Origin: a virus
Lineage: Duplodnaviria; Caudoviricetes
Virus record (IMG/VR): IMGVR_UViG_3300021387_001464
Span: 47,679 to 111,678 of that record
DNA: 64,000 nt
Reading direction: 5' to 3' (one strand)
Below are positions 12,439-59,437 of the stretch, in pieces. How positions within the stretch are numbered: position 1 is the first letter of the stretch; each line of letters starts with the position of its first letter. The position numbers were made by a program, and so were the translations under genes. The notes beneath the pieces were generated by a model. The model saw only the letters and a list, made by a program, of their open reading frames with translations, ran no database searches and had not been told where the DNA came from.

Positions 12439-12825
12439 ATGAACAAATTCCAAAAGGGCGATATGGAAGAAATACAGGATGCTTGCAGCGAGGGCAAGGA
12501 ATTTTACTTAGACAGCCCTGATAGTGACCGTAGGGCGTTCTTCAAGTTTGGAGGAACGACTTATTTCATTACGCGGGATGGCAAGGTGCTCTCATCGCGA
12601 GGCGACGGGTATCGCGAGCACGAGATTGCGCAGTATAATGGCAAGGGTTATCGTCGTGTACGGCTACGTGGCAAGACATTCAAGGTTCACCGCCTGGTGG
12701 CCGAGGCATTCGTGCCCAACCCTGACAACTTGCCCTATGTGCTGCACATTGACGGGGACCGCGAGAATAACATCTGTAGAAACCTGGAGTGGTCCGCAAA
12801 GCAGAGCAACCACCATGGGAAGTGA
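12439..12825 (+). CDS. HNH endonuclease (NUMOD4-associated type)
   Basis: GYRRVRL...VHRLVAEAFVPNPDNLPYVLHIDGDRENN...NLEW. Confidence 0.85.
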   Translation: MNKFQKGDMEEIQDACSEGKEFYLDSPDSDRRAFFKFGGTTYFITRDGKVLSSRGDGYREHEIAQYNGKGYRRVRLRGKTFKVHRLVAEAFVPNPDNLPYVLHIDGDRENNICRNLEWSAKQSNHHGK

Positions 12826-12897
12826 AAAGTGAAAAGTGAAAAGTGAAAAATTTCTTGCTTAGGCAAGCGTACTAAAGAAACGATTAGCTACCGCCGT

Positions 12898-13052
12898 ATG
12901 AGTTATGTCGATAAACCCATCATCCTTGGCAGGTACAGCCCGAGTCAGAATGGCATAGTGGTAAGCCCACGCGGACCCGCACTCTGCCTTGCAGGGGGGG
13001 TAACGGACACGATACGGACAAGCCGAAAATACTGATAGAACATGAATTGTAA
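12898..13052 (+). CDS. mini-TRD module M1, phase OFF (G7 at 12994-13000; G8 restores frame)
   Basis: restored product MSYVDKPIILGRYSPSQNGIVVSPRGPALCLAGGGNGHDTDKPKILIEHEL. Confidence 0.7.
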
Positions 13053-13185
13053 AACAATGCTATTGAATCCACAGGGGGGGGTATGCCGCACCATCAAGTC
13101 ACAGTATTACAAAAGCAGCGTGGCGAATTTCCTGCTGCAGACCACCAGAGGAGCAACGGCAGTATTGATAGAATATGAACTATAA
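13042..13185 (+). CDS. mini-TRD module M2, ON (G8 at 13074-13081)
   Basis: MNCKTMLLNPQGGVCRTIKSQYYKSSVANFLLQTTRGATAVLIEYEL. Confidence 0.7.
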   Translation: MNCKTMLLNPQGGVCRTIKSQYYKSSVANFLLQTTRGATAVLIEYEL

Positions 13186-13400
13186 GCGCATACCGAAGCC
13201 AGCGAACCTGCGAGACCATACACCGAGTATGGCCGAAGCATTGCCCTATATGATAGAGGCGTGCGGTTTGAGGGGGGGGGTGTTTGTTCGACTATCGCCA
13301 CTTTGTGTACGACACCATCGACGGATGCTACCCGTTCCCAGTGACCACAAGGATTCATGCCAGTAATCAGATTTGGCTATGCAAAGAAATAGAACTTTAA
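13175..13400 (+). CDS. mini-TRD module M3, OFF (G9 at 13272-13280; G8 restores frame)
   Basis: restored C-terminus RGGCLFDYRHFVYDTIDGCYPFPVTTRIHASNQIWLCKEIEL. Confidence 0.6.
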
Positions 13401-13414
13401 AACAAGATAAAAGA

Positions 13415-14920
13415 ATGATTGCAAAAGTTTATCCAGATGGGCATCCTGACTTGCAAGGCAAGAAGGACCCGACGCACCCAGTGCGCTATTTCGACATCCG
13501 TAAACTCACTCCACGCAAGTGCTATTCACTGATGGGCGTGCCGCCGCAGCAGATCGACACGCTGATGAAAACCGAAAAGAAACCATATATGGCATGGGTG
13601 GGCGTAGATGCCGAACTGGCTGTGTTCGGACTGGAGCCGAGTGCCACGCGCCGCGAGGTCGATGAAGCATATCGCGAGGCTATCGAGAGTCTAAGAAGAC
13701 CCACCCCCGACCCCTCCCTGGGCGAGGGAGGGGAGTGTGAAGACCCCGACAGACCCACCCCCATGCACCTCCCTGCTGAGGGAGGGGAGTGTGAAGAGCC
13801 TGAAATGAGCGAAGAGGAGGTGGCCCTGATGCGTGAGAACTACGATATGAACTACCAGCGCATCATCGCTGCCAGCCAGGAGCAGCGTTACGGTGACGTG
13901 CAGATTATTGCCAACTCGTCGCATTACAAGCTGGCGGGTAACTCCATCGTCTGCGACGTGCTGATGTATATCTACGAGGAACTGATGTACCCGACGGGCC
14001 GCCGACTGCCGCAGGAGCAGACCGACCTGTTCGCCCAGCCGCAGTTCCGGCTGACCCGAAACTGGAAGAAAGAGCCGCTGAAGTTGGTAACACTTTGCAG
14101 CGGCTACGACTCGCAGGCAATCGCTATGGATATGCTGCAACAGCGCTATCCGGACTTCCGATGGGAACTGAAGGCATGGAGCGAGTTCGACCCCGAGAGC
14201 AGCCGGCCACTGGAAGAGCAGCCCGCCGTGGTGGCCCATAATCTGCTGTTCCCACAATACAAGGATTTGAACCGTGGCGACATGACCAAGGCCGACTGGA
14301 GCGACCTCGCCGATGCAGGTATCGACCTGCTGACATATAGTACTCCGTGTCAGTCCATCTCACAGGCTGGCAAGCGAGAGGGTATCAAGAAAGGTAGTGG
14401 CACTCGCAGCGCCGTGCTGTGGAGCACCGAGATGGCGGTAGAGCATCTGCGACCGAAGGTGCTATTGCAGGAGAATGTGCGGGCGCTTATCAACAGCGTG
14501 AACATGCCCGACTTCCGCGAGTGGTGCAGCCTGCTGGAGAGCTACGGCTACGTGAACTTCCTCGCGCCATCGTTCCCGACGGTCTGGGGCACCGACAAGC
14601 GCGACAAGAAGACCGTGCCGGGCATCCTGAACGCCAAGCATTATGGTGTGCCACAGAACCGCGAGCGGGTGTATATGGTCTCCATTCGTGCCGACCTGCT
14701 CGGTGGCACGCAGTATGAGTTTCCCCGTCCTTTCCCGCTCGACAAGTGCATTGCCGATGTGCTGGAGGATAATGTCGATGAGCGTTTCTTCCTGAAGCCC
14801 GACTCGGTAATCAAGTTCCTCACAGTGAATGAATCGACTGACAGTAACGATATACACTATACGGTAACGGACCACAAACTCTCCGATGAAGAAATCGCCA
14901 AGATTCGTAGTGGAAAGTAG
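13415..14920 (+). CDS. circularly permuted DNA (cytosine-5) methyltransferase lacking a TRD
   Basis: motif IX IRKLTPRKCYSLMG and motif X HYKLAGNSIV come first, then I (LCSGYDSQ), IV (STPCQ), VI (ENV) and VIII (PQNRERVY); protein ends about 80 aa after motif VIII. Confidence 0.9.
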   Translation: MIAKVYPDGHPDLQGKKDPTHPVRYFDIRKLTPRKCYSLMGVPPQQIDTLMKTEKKPYMAWVGVDAELAVFGLEPSATRREVDEAYREAIESLRRPTPDPSLGEGGECEDPDRPTPMHLPAEGGECEEPEMSEEEVALMRENYDMNYQRIIAASQEQRYGDVQIIANSSHYKLAGNSIVCDVLMYIYEELMYPTGRRLPQEQTDLFAQPQFRLTRNWKKEPLKLVTLCSGYDSQAIAMDMLQQRYPDFRWELKAWSEFDPESSRPLEEQPAVVAHNLLFPQYKDLNRGDMTKADWSDLADAGIDLLTYSTPCQSISQAGKREGIKKGSGTRSAVLWSTEMAVEHLRPKVLLQENVRALINSVNMPDFREWCSLLESYGYVNFLAPSFPTVWGTDKRDKKTVPGILNAKHYGVPQNRERVYMVSIRADLLGGTQYEFPRPFPLDKCIADVLEDNVDERFFLKPDSVIKFLTVNESTDSNDIHYTVTDHKLSDEEIAKIRSGK

Positions 14921-15106
14921 TGCTGTGCTGCGGGGCGTGCGGACAGAGCACGCCCGTGCAGTACGCCGTATCTACGGTGACAGGGGGGGTACTGCCACTT
15001 CTCGGACCGCAACTACCTGCCTGCTACCGATGGCTGCAGCAACACCATCACTGGCGTACAGAAGGACAACCTATTGATAGTTGAATATGAATATAAAGAG
15101 TGTTAA
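14910..15106 (+). CDS. mini-TRD module M4, OFF (G7 at 14983-14989; G8 restores frame)
   Basis: restored ...RTEHARAVRRIYGDRGGYCHFSDRNYLPATDGCSNTITGVQKDNLLIVEYEYKEC; start is GTG 14910 or ATG 14886. Confidence 0.7.
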
Positions 15107-15230
15107 GCCCTACGACGATTACAATTCTACCCCCCCCCGACGCGATGGTGTCATTGGCACCGTTACAAGGCAAATTGGAACATCAGCACCAAGGAACGGC
15201 TGGAAAATATTGATAGAGTATGAAATATAA
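15087..15230 (+). CDS. mini-TRD module M5, ON (C9 at 15130-15138)
   Basis: MNIKSVKPYDDYNSTPPRRDGVIGTVTRQIGTSAPRNGWKILIEYEI. Confidence 0.7.
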   Translation: MNIKSVKPYDDYNSTPPRRDGVIGTVTRQIGTSAPRNGWKILIEYEI

Positions 15231-15384
15231 CAGGATATTGCAAATAGGCAACCTTACTGAAGGTGCAGGCAGAAACAACCCGCAGCGCAGAAGGCTCTAC
15301 TCGCCCTATGGCATTGCACCAACGGTGTACGGCTATCAAGGCGGTGGCAATTTGCAACCCTTGGTATTGATAGAGTATGAGTAG
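15220..15384 (+). CDS. mini-TRD module M6 (no tract)
   Basis: MKYNRILQIGNLTEGAGRNNPQRRRLYSPYGIAPTVYGYQGGGNLQPLVLIEYE. Confidence 0.75.
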   Translation: MKYNRILQIGNLTEGAGRNNPQRRRLYSPYGIAPTVYGYQGGGNLQPLVLIEYE

Positions 15385-15577
15385 CGTTACCCCCATATTG
15401 CGGCAAGTCCCTGTTCGGCGAGTGCGGACGGAATGGGCAAAGGCCATCCGACGAGAGACGGGCACCAACCCGTTTCAAGCCAAACAACTGGAGGAGTTTG
15501 TGTCGGACTACATGCCTACCATCACCGCCAGTGCAAACATCGAGAACTACATAAAGGTAGAGTATGATATTGATTAA
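15377..15577 (+). CDS. mini-TRD module M7 (no long tract)
   Basis: RTEWAKAIRR...MPTITASANIENYIKVEYDID; resembles M4. Confidence 0.7.
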   Translation: MSSVTPILRQVPVRRVRTEWAKAIRRETGTNPFQAKQLEEFVSDYMPTITASANIENYIKVEYDID

Positions 15578-15746
15578 AGAAACGATGCCCAACGAAGACC
15601 GCTTCCCTGTCCGTATCTCAGCAAGTCGTGGCAGGGGGGGGCAAAGACCGTTCCATCAGGTCATTGAACTCGGATCGTCGCAAGCCACAAACACCATCAC
15701 ATCAGTACAAAAAGATAATCTGGTATGGATAGAGCGAGATATTTAG
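15564..15746 (+). CDS. mini-TRD module M8, ON (G8 at 15634-15641)
   Basis: ASRGRGG...QVIEL...TNTITSVQKDNLVWIERDI. Confidence 0.75.
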   Translation: MILIKETMPNEDRFPVRISASRGRGGQRPFHQVIELGSSQATNTITSVQKDNLVWIERDI

Positions 15747-15878
15747 TTGGCGTACATCCGTTCTCTCACGCTTTGGAGTGTGAGGGCAAAATATGGGGGG
15801 GGGCAAATCAGTCCTGCCCTGCGGAGTACGGATTATAAATGTCCTCATTGTGTATTGATTGAGTATGAAGGAGTTTAA
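15725..15878 (+). CDS. mini-TRD module M9, OFF (G9 at 15795-15803; G8 restores frame)
   Basis: restored ...GKIWGGQISPALRSTDYKCPHCVLIEYEGV. Confidence 0.7.
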
Positions 15879-16045
15879 GTTTATTGGATGGACACGGCTC
15901 GGCAGTGGAAAAGGTGACGTATCAAAGTATCATCTGCGCCACTACTGTAACGCCATAACCTCGTTTGCAGGGGGGGGGTATTGGCAAGGATTCGCAGACT
16001 GGAATGTATAACACCACACCGTATGTATTGATAGAATATGAGTAA
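15865..16045 (+). CDS. mini-TRD module M10, OFF (G9 at 15970-15978; G8 restores frame)
   Basis: restored ...HYCNAITSFAGGGIGKDSQTGMYNTTPYVLIEYE. Confidence 0.7.
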
Positions 16046-16233
16046 AGAAAAGAAAGTTCGCCGATGCGACAACATTGCAGGGAAGTGGATGCCCGATGGC
16101 TCTATCCGCTTCTACCAAATGAACGAGCGGAAAGGCGGTGTGCCCGAACTTGTCAACGGCTACGCTGGGGGGGGTCATGCCCTGTATCATAGCAGGCCAT
16201 GAGCATTATGTTATTGTAGATTATGACCTATGA
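16038..16233 (+). CDS. mini-TRD module M11, OFF (G8 at 16167-16174; G7 or G10 restores frame)
   Basis: restored ...PELVNGYAGGVMPCIIAGHEHYVIVDYDL. Confidence 0.65.
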
Positions 16234-16484
16234 GTAACGTCAAGCATTATCCAACCGACGGGCGACCGTTTCTCTCCACCGCTTTGAGGGGGGGGCAGTT
16301 CGTGCTGCAAGTTCGACAAGCCACGGAGCAGGGCTACATCGAGTGTGTCAGCGGTGGCGTGTTCGATGTGGCTTATCCTTCCAGCCAGCTGCGCCGTGCC
16401 CGCGTCAAGGACGACGGCCTCGTGGCATCAGCGCTCATGTCGGGTGAAACATCACAATGCGTATTCATAGAATATGACGAATAA
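16230..16484 (+). CDS. mini-TRD module M12, ON (G8 at 16288-16295)
   Basis: QVRQATEQGYIECVSGGVFDVAYPSSQLRRARV...CVFIEYDE, like the 'QATKKGY...SKTRRGRV' variable-region segment of phage C5-MTases. Confidence 0.75.
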   Translation: MSNVKHYPTDGRPFLSTALRGGQFVLQVRQATEQGYIECVSGGVFDVAYPSSQLRRARVKDDGLVASALMSGETSQCVFIEYDE

Positions 16485-16614
16485 AAAATATTACGGAGGA
16501 ATATACTGTTGCTCTTCGCAATATGTGAAGAAAAAGCCTCTATGGGGCGTAGCACGTTGCATTATGGCTGATAAGGCTGACTATCATTTATTAGTAGAGT
16601 ATGAAGGCTATTAA
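16474..16614 (+). CDS. mini-TRD module M13 (no long tract)
   Basis: MTNKKYYGGIYCCSSQYVKKKPLWGVARCIMADKADYHLLVEYEGY. Confidence 0.65.
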   Translation: MTNKKYYGGIYCCSSQYVKKKPLWGVARCIMADKADYHLLVEYEGY

Positions 16615-16895
16615 ACTATCGCGCACCACATCGGCTACGGCCAAGCATTTGAGGGGGGGGGGACTTCCTGCCGGTTCAAGGCTGCGATTCAGCGAGAGCA
16701 GTCGAAAGCTCGCTTTCAGACTGCCGAGCGCAAGCAGGCTCGACGGGTTACTTGTTACCTGTCAATACCACGACAGGCGGCTGCGCCTGTACGCTCAACA
16801 CCCGCTACGACGGTATGCAACTGCCAGAGGATATCCTCTCGCTCGCACACTATCCAAAGACAGTCGTGCTTATCGAATATCATCCTGACGGGTAA
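16601..16895 (+). CDS. mini-TRD module M14, OFF (G10 at 16653-16662; G9 restores frame)
   Basis: restored ...LPVNTTTGGCACTLNTRYDGMQLPEDILSLAHYPKTVVLIEYHPDG; contains a 67-bp repeat insert. Confidence 0.65.
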
Positions 16896-17004
16896 GGTTT
16901 CGTCCTCGCAAGATGGAGTGGTCGTATCGCCATACGGCATTGCACCCACCCATTCCGCAGGGCACGGTAACTGTCCAAAGATACTGATAGAGTATAATAT
17001 ATAA
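16879..17004 (+). CDS. mini-TRD module M15 (ATC where the other modules have ATG)
   Basis: (I)ILTGKVSSSQDGVVVSPYGIAPTHSAGHGNCPKILIEYNI; paralogue of M1 and M6. Confidence 0.6.
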   Translation: MILTGKVSSSQDGVVVSPYGIAPTHSAGHGNCPKILIEYNI

Positions 17005-40432: not shown

Positions 40433-40890
40433 CAGAGAAGCCCACCGCCGGCGTACATATTCCTGAAGAGGTGGTGCGTCAGAGTGAAGAAAAGAAACAG
40501 CAGCACCGCACGATACGGCAGACGCAGGTGTACCGTGACGTGGCGAACCTGAAATATCTAATCGTCCGTCACATGAGTAATGCTCCACGGAAGTACGCCA
40601 AGTATTTCGACGAGATGCTTGTTACGGTTAGCAACGCCAAGCAGAGCCTTGCGCTCGGACTGATAGGGCGCAACGTAGAGCAGCAGTACGAGAACATGAG
40701 CTATGCACAGGTGATGGTAGAGGATATTCAGGATGACGCCATCATCCTGCACCAGCTGGGGTTGGTAGATAAAAAAGAGAAGAAAAGTATAAGGAGCTTG
40801 GCACAAAAGATAGCCGCGCAGATAGTCCGGCTGCGCGATTATTACAAAAGCCAGGGGATAGACATGAACGGTAAAACGTGTGAACCATGA
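40417..40890 (+). CDS. avd: DGR accessory variability determinant (Avd-like four-helix bundle)
   Basis: 157-aa helical, basic protein between VR and TR/RT. Confidence 0.65.
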   Translation: MGENVTEKPTAGVHIPEEVVRQSEEKKQQHRTIRQTQVYRDVANLKYLIVRHMSNAPRKYAKYFDEMLVTVSNAKQSLALGLIGRNVEQQYENMSYAQVMVEDIQDDAIILHQLGLVDKKEKKSIRSLAQKIAAQIVRLRDYYKSQGIDMNGKTCEP

Positions 40891-42368
40891 GCTATCGAGC
40901 GCTACATAATCGGCTGAATGGGCGTCTTACTGCGGGAGGAAACTCCTTCAGTTACGAAGATGCAAAGACGCAAAAAGGCAGTAACCATTGGAGTGTTACG
41001 GAGAACAACCGCAACAACGCGAGGAACGTGAACTTCAACAATGGCAACGTGAACAACAACAACAAGTACAACAGTAACGTTGTTCGTCCTGTCGCAGCAT
41101 TCGGTGATGTTGTGTCAACTCCTTTTCTTCTCTTTCTTCTCTCTGTCTGGAAGGCATACCACGACTGCTTGCGAAATAAGATGTCATCGACGCAGGCAGT
41201 GGAATACATGCAGATAGCTGCCTTCGACATACCCTGCCTGGCCTGGGAGCTATGGACAGGCACCTACCAGCCAGGCATATCCACTTGTTTTCTTGTCCGC
41301 TATCCCAAGTGGCGCGAAGTTTTTGCCGCCTGCTTCCGCGACCGTATCGTACATCACTGGATTTGCCTGCGCCTGGAGCCCTTGTTTGAGCTTCGCTTTC
41401 GTGAGCAAGGCAACGTAAGTTTCAACTGCCGCAAGGGGTTCGGTACCGACAGGGCTGTTGAGTACGTGTCAGAGGCCATGCGCCGCATTAGCGACAACTA
41501 TCATAAGCCCGCGTGGGTATTCCGTGGTGACATCGTAGGTTTCTTTATGGCCATCAACAAGGAGCTGTTATGGTATCTGCTGGAGCGCTTCATGCGCCGC
41601 TGGCAGTTCCGCGAGCAACATTTCGGATGGTGTAAGTACGGTTTGGCAGGACAACCGAAAATGTACTGGGACATTCTCTTTAATGTGACGCGCATCATAG
41701 TGATGCACCACCCCGAACAGAACTGCGTATTGAACTCACCCGTACACTTGTGGAAGAACCTCGCGCCAAACAAGAGCCTGTTCACATCGTCAACGGGCGA
41801 GCCCATCGGAAACCTGACCACACAGTTATTCGCCAATTTCCTGATGTCATTCTTTGTGGCATACGTGCAGTTTGTGTTCCGCCGCAAACGGTTCGACATG
41901 GCACAGTTTGTGGATGATTTCGTGTTGGTATGCGACGATCTACGCTTCCTTGTTGACAGCATTCCGCTGCTCGAGACGTTCCTACGTGACAAACTGCTGC
42001 TGACACTCCACGAGAACAAGCGCTATCTGCAGCCCGTTAGTCACGGCGTGCTGTTTGTCGGCACAATGATTAAGCCGTCAAGACAGTATCTCAGTAACCG
42101 CACTATATCAAGAATGACGGAGAAGTGCAACGGTTTCCGCGAGATACTGAACGGCATGACTACCGATGCCTTGCCGGACCTGACAACACTGGAACATATC
42201 GAGCAGGTCGTCAATAGTTACCTCGGCTTTACTCGACGAAGACAGACCTACGACTTCAGGACGAGCACCATCGACAGTATGGGTGACGCCTTCTGGTGTT
42301 ACTTTGTCGTGCGTGGACATTACGAGAGCATCCGACTGAGACGTCAGTACAGAATGATACATGTTTAA
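40887..42368 (+). CDS. DGR reverse transcriptase (start uncertain; reading frame is open through the TR)
   Basis: REVFAACFRDRIVHH, CRKGFGT, DIVGFFM, PIGNLTTQLFANF, FVDDF, GVLFVG. Confidence 0.93.
   Translation: MSYRALHNRLNGRLTAGGNSFSYEDAKTQKGSNHWSVTENNRNNARNVNFNNGNVNNNNKYNSNVVRPVAAFGDVVSTPFLLFLLSVWKAYHDCLRNKMSSTQAVEYMQIAAFDIPCLAWELWTGTYQPGISTCFLVRYPKWREVFAACFRDRIVHHWICLRLEPLFELRFREQGNVSFNCRKGFGTDRAVEYVSEAMRRISDNYHKPAWVFRGDIVGFFMAINKELLWYLLERFMRRWQFREQHFGWCKYGLAGQPKMYWDILFNVTRIIVMHHPEQNCVLNSPVHLWKNLAPNKSLFTSSTGEPIGNLTTQLFANFLMSFFVAYVQFVFRRKRFDMAQFVDDFVLVCDDLRFLVDSIPLLETFLRDKLLLTLHENKRYLQPVSHGVLFVGTMIKPSRQYLSNRTISRMTEKCNGFREILNGMTTDALPDLTTLEHIEQVVNSYLGFTRRRQTYDFRTSTIDSMGDAFWCYFVVRGHYESIRLRRQYRMIHV
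40978..41102 (+). ncRNA. DGR template repeat (TR)
   Basis: AAC-rich invariant copy of the VR. Confidence 0.97.
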
Positions 42369-49157: not shown

Positions 49158-49706
49158 TTACGCATCCTGGATAACCAGTTCGTCCAGCGTCTTGTCCTCG
49201 GGGAGGTCGAGGAACAAGTTGCCGTACTTGACGGGACCCAAAATCAGGTTGGCCGTAGTGACACGGTCGCTGTCAGGCGTATCGCCCGTGGTGGTGGTGA
49301 TGCCGCCCTGGTCAGCGTGAATCTTCTTGTTGGGGTCGTACATAATCTGGATGTCGTCTCCATCGGGCATGATGACGAACAAGTCACCCAGGTTGTTCAG
49401 CGCACGGGTCAGGAGCGAAGTCTTGCGGTTCACTGCGTCGAACACGAGCGTAGCGGTCAGGTTGTAACCCTTGCGCTTGCCGTTGCTGGAGCCTTCAATC
49501 TTCTGCGACTCCTCCTTCAGGTCAAGCTTGACGAGACCCTTACCGTCATTAAAGGCGAGACCGCTATACACGTTTCCGGTAGCTGTCAGGGGGGCTTTGA
49601 GGTCGCTGCGCAGACCGAGGTATGCTACTTCACCAAGACCGGCGAGGTTCTCCAGACACTCGTCGGCTGCGGAGTAGTTAATCAATGATGGACATGTCTG
49701 TGGCAT
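49158..49706 (-). CDS. putative major tail (tube) protein
   Basis: 182 aa, beta-rich; C.EN.AGL N-terminal motif; follows the capsid gene. Confidence 0.55.
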   Translation of the reverse strand: MPQTCPSLINYSAADECLENLAGLGEVAYLGLRSDLKAPLTATGNVYSGLAFNDGKGLVKLDLKEESQKIEGSSNGKRKGYNLTATLVFDAVNRKTSLLTRALNNLGDLFVIMPDGDDIQIMYDPNKKIHADQGGITTTTGDTPDSDRVTTANLILGPVKYGNLFLDLPEDKTLDELVIQDA

Positions 49707-58773: not shown

Positions 58774-59437
58774 TTAAAAAAGTTCCAGTTGCACGGCCTG
58801 CTGTGCCGTGGGGTGGTTTATCCAGTCGAGCGTGGTCTGTCCGATCCAGCCCTTGCGCCACACCCACCAGGCGTAGCTGACTGCCGAGCCGCCTCCGGCT
58901 ATCATGCCGTCGAAGTCGGCGTTCTTGGCACATAGCACGCGCTCCGAACATTGCAGCACCAGCGCAGGCGGCGTGACACCGAAGATGCGCTGATAGCGCT
59001 CCTTGCCCTCGGCAAACGTGGTCTTCAAGAACAGGCACAGCAGTCCGTCCGTTGGCAGCAGTCGCAGGGCGTGCAGCACGTACTCCGTGGCGTACTTGTA
59101 GGGCGGGTTGGTGACGATGGCCGTGCAGCCCTCGGGCATCTGCTGCTGCTCGAAGAAGTTTACCCCCCCCCATTCCGTAGCCACGGTCTATGAGGTCGGT
59201 GCTTACCACGTGGTAGCCGCGCTGCCGTAACCGCTCGCTCAGACAGCCGCTGCCGCACGACGGTTCCCACACACCCTGCGGCAACTCCACATAGGGGTAG
59301 TCGCACAGCAGGTCGATGGCCACGGGGTCGGTAGCGTAGAAGTCATCCGTCTCGCGCTCCTTCTCCGTGTGGTTCGATGCCCCCAGCGTCTTGAAGATGC
59401 TGTTGCCGTTGCCGTTCCAGTCTTTATTGCTGCTCAT
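58774..59437 (-). CDS. N6-adenine (amino) DNA methyltransferase, frameshifted at a G9 tract (phase OFF; G8 restores frame)
   Basis: 5' frame: DFYATDP, WEPSCGSG, STDLIDRGYG; 3' frame: VNFF...IVTNPPY...YAWWVW; junction at C9, 59163-59171. Confidence 0.85.

Follow-up and report, generated by a model that had tools for sequence, protein, structure and literature searches.

How is one to read a phage operon in which a single methyltransferase gene is flanked on both sides by very small open reading frames (ORFs), several of them broken at a homopolymer of G or C? The question is raised by an array in the window, by which we mean the whole 64,000-nt stretch analysed here, bases 47679-111678 of the 111,678-bp IMG/VR virus record IMGVR_UViG_3300021387_001464. 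Immediately downstream of an HNH endonuclease gene, mini-ORFs M1–M3, a core gene for a C5-cytosine methyltransferase (C5-MTase) of 513 amino acids, and mini-ORFs M4–M15 form a single compact operon on the + strand. The modules are 40-95 codons long and share a hydrophobic C-terminal ..LIEY.. motif; the start of each next ORF overlaps the preceding LIEY end (..TATGA..), and each module has its own ATG and stop with the exception of M15, which is without any ATG. Eleven of these mini-ORFs harbour a long G/C run. In our judgement these runs are very probably hypermutable contingency tracts, which switch free-standing genes for the target recognition domain (TRD) of a circularly permuted C5-MTase that has no TRD of its own.

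A regular-expression scan of the window for G/C runs of at least 7 returned 12, of which 11 lie within 12994-16662, one per mini-ORF and each inside the ORF it would control, with exactly the coordinates and lengths given by an earlier sequence-only reading of this DNA (Table 1). The same reading had placed the sole other run in a second methyltransferase gene, and the scan bears this out (C9 at 59163, in a gene whose two halves match phrog_799); the next longest run in the window is a G6 at 49589. With 11 of the 12 runs in 5.7% of the window the clustering has a binomial P of ~2e-13, and GGGGGGG, counted with overlaps on both strands, is found 29 times versus 4.5 +/- 3.2 in 100 dinucleotide-preserving shuffles, none of which reached 29. 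Across the whole 111.7-kb genome there are 14 G/C runs of at least 7, and 13 are in DNA methyltransferase genes: 11 in the array, 1 in the NPPY methyltransferase of the window and 1 in an N6_N4 methyltransferase; the other is a G7 between ORFs (G000:C1:37661-37667). Codon usage sets the runs apart as well. GGG is the rarest glycine codon in the 16 long ORFs of the window (45/787, 5.7%; 11,278 codons in all), and not one of the 54 Gly-Gly pairs in those ORFs is written GGG-GGG; ten of the modules write Gly-Gly(-Gly) with G alone. In a low-GC group of relatives the M1 family codes for its Gly-Gly-Gly with GGT GGA GGT, GGT GGT GGT or GGC GGC GGC, and the site of the M4 tract is Asn-Ser-Gly. The runs are not due to chance, and they are built against codon usage.

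Four of the eleven tract-bearing modules (M2, M5, M8 and M12) are in frame, being open from their ATG to the ..IEY.. end, and the other seven each regain the conserved end by a single-base change in the run; a change of one unit therefore flips every one of the eleven between a full-length and a truncated frame, as the sequence-only reading had stated. In M6, M7 and M13, which are free of long runs, the frame is open. That reading had also placed the tracts at non-homologous positions. This holds between module families and fails within a family, where the tract has the same position in all orthologues.

Table 1. Modules of the array, the core and the other methyltransferase genes of the phage, with tract states in the window and in orthologous modules of related loci (L numbers); the arrow column gives the in-frame tract length and the end it restores.
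Feature	Position	Strand	Tract	State	→ in-frame length, end	Remarks and orthologues
M1, TRD-like mini-ORF	12898..13052	+	G7, 12994-13000	OFF	G8 (+1), ..ILIEHEL	Nearest orthologues: L019, L058 G8, in frame; L002, L021 OFF
M2	13042..13185	+	G8, 13074-13081	ON		Orthologues found: 8/8 OFF (G6, G7 or G10)
M3	13175..13400	+	G9, 13272-13280	OFF	G8 (-1), ..WLCKEIEL	End overlaps core ATG; L026 G8 ON; L023 G10 OFF
Core, circularly permuted C5-MTase	13379..14920	+	none			Motif order IX-X-I-IV-VI-VIII; no TRD
M4	14886..15106	+	G7, 14983-14989	OFF	G8 (+1), ..LLIVEYEYKEC	ATG 35 nt within core 3' end, different frame; G8 ON in L019, L024, L026, L027, L035, L050; G7 OFF in L002, L020, L022, L023, L030, L033, L054
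M5	15087..15230	+	C9, 15130-15138 (Pro-Pro)	ON		L026 C7 OFF; L024, L050 C8 ON
M6	15220..15384	+	none	ON		Resembles M.HhaI recognition loops; L025 gained G7, OFF
M7	15377..15577	+	no long tract (C5)	ON		C8 ON in L004, L035; C7 OFF in L024
M8	15564..15746	+	G8, 15634-15641	ON		G6/G7 OFF; G8 ON
M9	15725..15878	+	G9, 15795-15803	OFF from ATG 15725	G8 (-1), ..VLIEYEGV	In-frame TTG start at 15747 too; orthologues start at ATG 15725; L022 G8 ON; G7, G9 and G10 orthologues OFF
M10	15865..16045	+	G9, 15970-15978	OFF	G8 (-1), ..VLIEYE	G8 ON (n = 5); G7 OFF (n = 8); G6 OFF (n = 1)
M11	16038..16233	+	G8, 16167-16174	OFF	G7 (-1), ..VIVDYDL	L022 G7 ON; L050 G8 OFF
M12	16230..16484	+	G8, 16288-16295	ON		Best TRD evidence among modules; G6 to G9, both states occur
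M13	16474..16614	+	none	ON		
M14	16601..16895	+	G10, 16653-16662	OFF	G9 (-1), ..VLIEYHPDG	
M15	16894..17004	+				No own ATG; ends ..ILIEYNI; frame open back to M14 tract
Second DNA methyltransferase (EPSCGSG, TNPPY)	58774..59437	-	G9 (C9 at 59163-59171 on +)	OFF		Gene split by the run
Third DNA methyltransferase	G000:C1:28863-29561 (L065:1364-2062)		G8	in frame		PF01555 N6_N4_Mtase, E 3.9e-33; upstream of window

Do these frames change? A search with the core protein of IMG/VR, metagenome and GTDB genome contigs yielded more than 60 related loci. The high-GC relatives (core identity 62-97%; mostly rumen-type metagenomes and Prevotellaceae metagenome-assembled genomes, MAGs) have the same type of array, with G/C runs clustered around the core. 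Modules were called by an ATG in the previous junction, a LIEY end and an optional frame change at the run, and 27 non-duplicate related loci gave 130 modules with a run of at least 7, 52 of them ON and 78 OFF. State follows length: G7 was ON in 4 and OFF in 56, G8 ON in 43 and OFF in 5, G9 ON in 5 and OFF in 13, and G10 ON in none and OFF in 4. Opposite-state relatives exist for 10 of the 11 window tracts; for M2 the relatives are OFF only. The M4 leader peptide of the window (G7, OFF) is identical to that of L050 (G8, ON).

L028 and L029, which come from different samples, have 0 mismatches in 2882 nt but are unlike in length at two of eight tracts. L030 and L033 are 99.2% identical and differ at 7 of 11 tracts, with 8 of the 10 gap openings at G/C runs; L003 and L067, at 94.7% identity, differ at 6 of 7. 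When 19 pairs of at least 93% identity were pooled (71 kb aligned), G/C runs whose longer allele was at least 8 differed in length in 40 of 52 cases and G7 runs in 1 of 15, as against 0 of 114 G/C runs of 4-6 and 0 of 73 A/T runs of 5-7, just two of which are 7 long. The flanks are conserved, the concentration of indels in coding tracts is unmistakable, and tract length changes far faster than substitutions accumulate. The recurrence of the same lengths within close clades suggests reversible, high-frequency switching. A comparison of tract lengths across related genomes had been proposed by the sequence-only reading as its own check, and it came out in that reading's favour, orthologous lengths differing between independent assemblies and the frame flipping with them.

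The same comparison bears on whether the tracts are in truth fixed in frame, the one-base differences being homopolymer miscalls in sequencing or assembly. The commonest OFF length, G7, is one below the commonest ON length, G8, which is the typical direction of a homopolymer undercall, and the ends of three related contigs (L001 start, L020 end, L050 end) fall on a tract or no more than ~15 nt from one, a sign of assembler trouble that fits assembly-graph breaks from length heterogeneity or from poor coverage. However, the runs are real and strongly enriched at whatever exact length; the differences recur across many assemblies and projects (IMG/VR, JGI, ENA, NCBI MAGs and an isolate genome); and the changes are of +1, -1 and 2 bases over a range from G6 to G11. 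Long window ORFs of 1127-2333 amino acids are intact, the shorter G/C runs and the A/T runs are constant in the very same alignments, and miscalling would leave the codon bias of the runs unexplained. Consensus errors between G7 and G8 are moreover rare in short-read assemblies. We regard an artefact as very unlikely.

Purifying selection on the modules was assessed with a pooled Nei-Gojobori estimate of the ratio of nonsynonymous to synonymous substitution rates (dN/dS) for the module part downstream of the tract. The ratio was 0.19 for OFF-OFF, 0.14 for OFF-ON and 0.10 for ON-ON comparisons. Purifying selection thus still acts on a frame that is closed in the genotype as assembled, which means that lineages must be ON for much of the time. 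Nearly the whole of the arrays is tiled by modules that are ON or can be restored at the tract.

These values speak directly to the proposal that the array is decaying, the mini-ORFs being remnants of duplicated TRDs and the homopolymers inactivating hot spots with no adaptive switching. Decay would accommodate the 60% of tract-bearing modules that are OFF, a proportion near the two-thirds expected for random length, and also the shuffling, gain and loss of modules between relatives. It does not predict a dN/dS of 0.19 on the out-of-frame part even where both copies are OFF, nor OFF modules in the window whose only lesion is the tract. Runs that use the rarest glycine codon likewise count against it, as do the recurrence of the same length states in very close clades and the rise of new tracts in families that are elsewhere tract-free (M6 in L025; M7 in L004, L035 and L024). 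Decay is, on this evidence, very unlikely.

A third proposal concerns expression rather than DNA: RNA polymerase or the ribosome might slip on the G runs, so that full-length product is made at any length and the runs set expression ratios. Transcription can slip on long homopolymers, A/T runs being the best-documented case, and for a long stretch past the M14 tract none of the three frames is closed. Programmed recoding would be expected to hold tract length and out-of-frame arrangement constant, and both change between near-identical genomes; many alleles, besides, are plainly in frame. Recoding may add leakiness to DNA-level switching but cannot replace it, and as the main explanation we find it very unlikely.

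The M14 tract deserves separate comment. With G11 or G8 in place of its G10, reading continues through to the end of M15, and from the M14 tract to the end of M15 no stop interrupts the M15 frame (249-339 nt), either in the window or in at least 11 relatives (L001, L003, L004, L022, L023, L024, L026, L030, L033, L037 and L051), of which L024 actually reads in the M15 frame. This tract may be a three-way switch with M14, an M15 fusion or neither as outcomes.

The switch interpretation as such, with each run arising by its own selection for slipped-strand ON/OFF changes, is supported by the variation in length and frame, its rate, the purifying selection and the codon usage. The number of states is a different matter. 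A count of 2^11 methylation states, as the sequence-only reading had it, presupposes that every free module works with the core. The switches are also not exactly eleven in number: the one in M14 may select either M14 or M15, two additional methyltransferase genes of the genome have runs, and in relatives there is a poly-C run in the core.

What, then, is being switched? The core matches PF00145 (E 3.9e-36), with motifs PCQ, ENV, QxRxR and GNS present, and motifs IX-X precede I-VIII as in permuted C5-MTases. The permutation is seen in a two-part alignment to M.HhaI of the core from relative L039, which is 56% identical to that of the window: residues 80-134 align with M.HhaI 271-320 (motifs IX-X) and residues 225-376 with M.HhaI 52-198, as far as the start of the variable region. 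The stretch equivalent to M.HhaI 199-270 is absent from the core; the missing piece is the TRD. Nor is a TRD found ahead of motif IX in the same polypeptide, the order of M.BssHII, as the core begins ~12 residues before the conserved MIAK.. segment. The core has a conserved C-terminal tail and a nearly invariant N-terminal segment (MIAK.YPDGHPDL..).

A fused TRD is present in relatives L020, L021, L022, L028 and L039, and three TRD families occur in both fused and free-standing form (L020/L032 at 78%, L021/L026 at 75% and L039/L004 at 38% identity); the free forms end in ..IEY-stop and the fused forms are in frame with the core N-terminus. The M3 type of TRD is an in-frame fusion to the core in L021, and the M10 type is fused to the core N-terminus in low-GC relatives. 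Sixteen low-GC relatives, mostly from other metagenome assemblies, have a core with a fused TRD followed by 5-8 free modules, and all 32 modules called in them are intact and without tracts. The split between core and free modules thus predates the switches and is maintained independently of them.

Module M12 matches phrog_16427 ('DNA methyltransferase') at positions 59-110, and motif IX of the core matches the adjoining positions 111-137. On L017, a canonical C5-MTase has directly before its motif IX a segment to which M12 is 39% identical. Longer proteins with M12 in them did not emerge from a word-indexed search, whereas a complete HMMER scan using a profile built from the M12 orthologues matched 633 proteins among 1.84 billion representatives: the top matches were free proteins of 70-117 amino acids, and the 10 long matches checked were all PF00145 enzymes, matched in the TRD region with E down to 1e-14. 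By homology M12 is demonstrably a TRD; that the other modules are TRDs of the permuted C5-MTase is put forward less firmly than for M12.

Several observations weigh against the proposed switching of TRD genes, or narrow it. Statistically solid TRD homology is confined to M12; Pfam and PHROGs scans of the individual modules were empty except for M12, and the top PDB match of an M1/M6/M15 profile, although to M.HhaI 228-257 with its two DNA-recognition loops, has a weak E of 0.27. AlphaFold2 applied to a natural TRD-core fusion (L020, 24-row alignment) gave a confident core and a TRD with predicted local distance difference test (pLDDT) scores of 30-43, which are uninformative on docking; assembly of TRD and core in trans is suggested by the architecture. 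The data are assemblies, whose differences show fast change and not reversibility or a per-generation rate, and the genome pairs are phylogenetically non-independent. An ON fraction of 40% is near the one-third expected from mere drift of tract length. The caller detects only modules that are ON or tract-restorable, so that otherwise broken ones escape the tally, and a few array intervals in relatives are unexplained by modules. The A/T control is small in the high-GC clade and thin for long runs, and a few A/T runs of 6-8 vary in the low-GC relatives, mostly in apparently non-coding DNA; the control is a contrast in placement and not proof that G/C runs alone slip.

Taken with these reservations, the proposed switching of free TRD genes would operate as follows. 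Each run lies inside one small gene, where it usually codes for Gly-Gly(-Gly) and in one case for Pro-Pro. With one G gained or lost by strand slippage as the phage DNA replicates, ribosomes would either reach the conserved ..LIEY.. strand in frame or miss it, and specificity modules would in this way switch ON and OFF heritably, reversibly and independently of one another. ON modules would be translated by coupling, through the overlap of the ATG with the end of the preceding module. Their TRDs probably dock non-covalently in the gap that follows motif VIII at the core C-terminus and precedes motif IX at its N-terminus, and each TRD would direct 5-methylcytosine (5mC) to its own target sequence. 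A population would then carry many methylation patterns as a hedge against the varied restriction systems of Prevotellaceae; the bet-hedging between ordinary and methyl-dependent restriction that the sequence-only reading had proposed is plausible. We lean, with only slightly better than even confidence, towards a broader picture in which the operon is a switchboard of one core and ~15 exchangeable TRD subunits, most of them toggled by tracts, that gives thousands of methylomes per lineage and is widespread in rumen and gut phages and prophages of Bacteroidales.

Leaders and TRDs may also be shuffled by recombination, with the tracts as junctions: a chimeric module at L027:1405-1644 has the M4 leader (to ..YGDRGG) joined at a G8 tract to a TRD body of another family (..RRYYGIYAFVRADF..). 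Two other mechanisms were considered and rejected. DNA-level shuffling of cassettes at the repeated ..ATAGAATATGA junctions does not suit as the main mechanism, because the repeats are direct and recombination between them would only delete; the modules moreover keep their own ATG, and the junction consists of conserved LIEY codons and an overlapping start. A single polyprotein made by frameshifting at the junctions fails because the order in which it linked downstream modules to the core would be of no use.

The core itself varies among relatives. In several it has a poly-C run, in a Pro-Pro-Pro stretch just after motif IX, that is broken at C7 or C10 (L002:6154, C10; L030/L033, C8/C7; L001/L003/L037/L067, C8/C8/C7/C7) and could be a master ON/OFF switch there; the window core has no poly-C run at this stretch (GTGCCGCCGCAGCAG). 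Between motifs IX and X the core also has an acidic insertion of ~130 amino acids (window 13660-13830) with an internal duplication in which ..EGGECE.. occurs twice; the low-GC relatives, with cores of 373-427 amino acids, do not have this insertion. In that clade, which is without G tracts, an A6/A7 difference at a module start (L040:5445 versus L047/L048) would shift the frame and could represent a poly-A version of the switch. In the window, a perfect tandem repeat of the heptamer AAGTGAA (4.3 copies, 12820-12849) separates the stop of the HNH gene from the M1 ATG; it is absent from relatives whose HNH gene abuts M1 and might be a further repeat-based regulator of the operon.

A blastn search of the region against 50,697 deposited phage genomes gave no match, and exact-flank pattern scans of IMG/VR turned up no more alleles of the tracts in M12 and M4. 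A cultured isolate, Prevotella sp. MGM1, has a related array with G7-G11 runs on a contig of 90 kb (L100; NZ_BEWV01000204.1), and such an array is likewise present in the rumen Prevotellaceae MAGs L067/L068; near a related methyltransferase of a Lepagella muris isolate (L087) only G/C runs of 8 were seen and no LIEY-type ends. The host is likely a member of the Prevotellaceae. Among the other genes of the phage, the second methyltransferase gives contiguous phrog_799 matches on either side of its break (185-268, E 1.5e-19; 274-389, E 1.3e-27), and a reverse transcriptase (40887-42368; phrog_1423, E 8e-55, with a weak RVT_1 match) adjoins the tail genes; the phage probably also carries a diversity-generating retroelement.

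If the interpretation is correct, a virus diversifies its own methylation module by module to counter the very diverse restriction of Bacteroidales, which would offer a natural explanation for strain-level heterogeneity of methylomes in gut and rumen viromes, and the architecture could serve as a programmable 5mC writer. The cultured Prevotella isolate with its related array is an existing experimental system. There is also a practical warning, in that automated annotation will call most genes of this kind frameshifted or miss them.

Phase-variable methyltransferases are known bacterial regulators and defence switches, and poly-G contingency tracts of phages have been recognised only recently; the proposed system would bring the two together in a new manner. 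In phasevarions, the phase-variable genes are Type III mod and Type I hsdM/hsdS (Seib et al., 2020; Atack et al., 2020; both as cited in PMC12707154). As in the array, simple repeats lie in methyltransferase or specificity genes and slipped-strand mispairing switches methylation; but phasevarions are bacterial, chromosomal and N6-adenine-specific with one or few switches, whereas here a phage C5-cytosine enzyme has ~11 switched mini-genes per core. Hypermutable poly-G tracts are described for Campylobacter Fletchervirus phages (Sorensen et al., 2021, Cell Rep 35:109214; as cited in PMC12823448 and bioRxiv 10.1101/2025.10.21.683753). There too, G7-G11 runs within phage genes give rise to subpopulations of different phenotype, although the tracts lie in receptor-binding proteins and affect host range at adsorption, and those of the array lie in DNA-modification genes. 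Contingency loci are also reported for phages T2 and T4, along with a poly-G tract in the methylase gene of Bordetella phage BPP-1 that was never studied further (bioRxiv 10.1101/2025.10.21.683753). These share with the array the use of reversible repeat frameshifts for bet-hedging by a phage; in BPP-1, however, a single tract lies in a whole gene, in contrast to an array of independently switched specificity modules.

Several short TRDs on one phage C5-MTase core are likewise not new. Trautner and colleagues are said to have described, in 1996, Bacillus phage enzymes (SPR, phi3T, rho11s and H2) with several TRDs of ~40-50 amino acids per core, directed at different targets. This work on multispecific C5-MTases (EMBO J 15:1434) is among the references of PMC12707154. 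The likeness to the SPR/phi3T type lies in the many short TRDs; these are tandem in one polypeptide between motifs VIII and IX and co-expressed, whereas the modules of the window are separate ORFs, most of them switched, and no contiguous TRDs were found in one polypeptide. Our literature search found no paper on free-standing, individually switched TRD genes. The principle of the switch is thus known from phasevarions and phage poly-G tracts, and the free-TRD architecture appears to be undescribed.

Natural permuted C5-MTases (M.BssHII and M.Alw26I, among others), the split M.AquI alpha/beta and the fragment complementation of M.SssI and M.BspRI are all documented (PMC5944983; PMC3404938). 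In these enzymes, as here, the break points lie in the variable region and detached parts can reassemble into active enzyme, and relatives L020, L021 and L039 retain the M.BssHII-like order TRD-IX-X-I..VIII. Permutation at the variable region and complementation by fragments split there are both well established in C5-MTases, which makes assembly in trans credible. The window core differs in having no TRD, with ~15 alternative small proteins instead, and to our knowledge no enzyme takes exchangeable TRD subunits. Should the proposal prove true, this would be the first C5-MTase with exchangeable, separately encoded specificity subunits, akin to HsdS in Type I systems.

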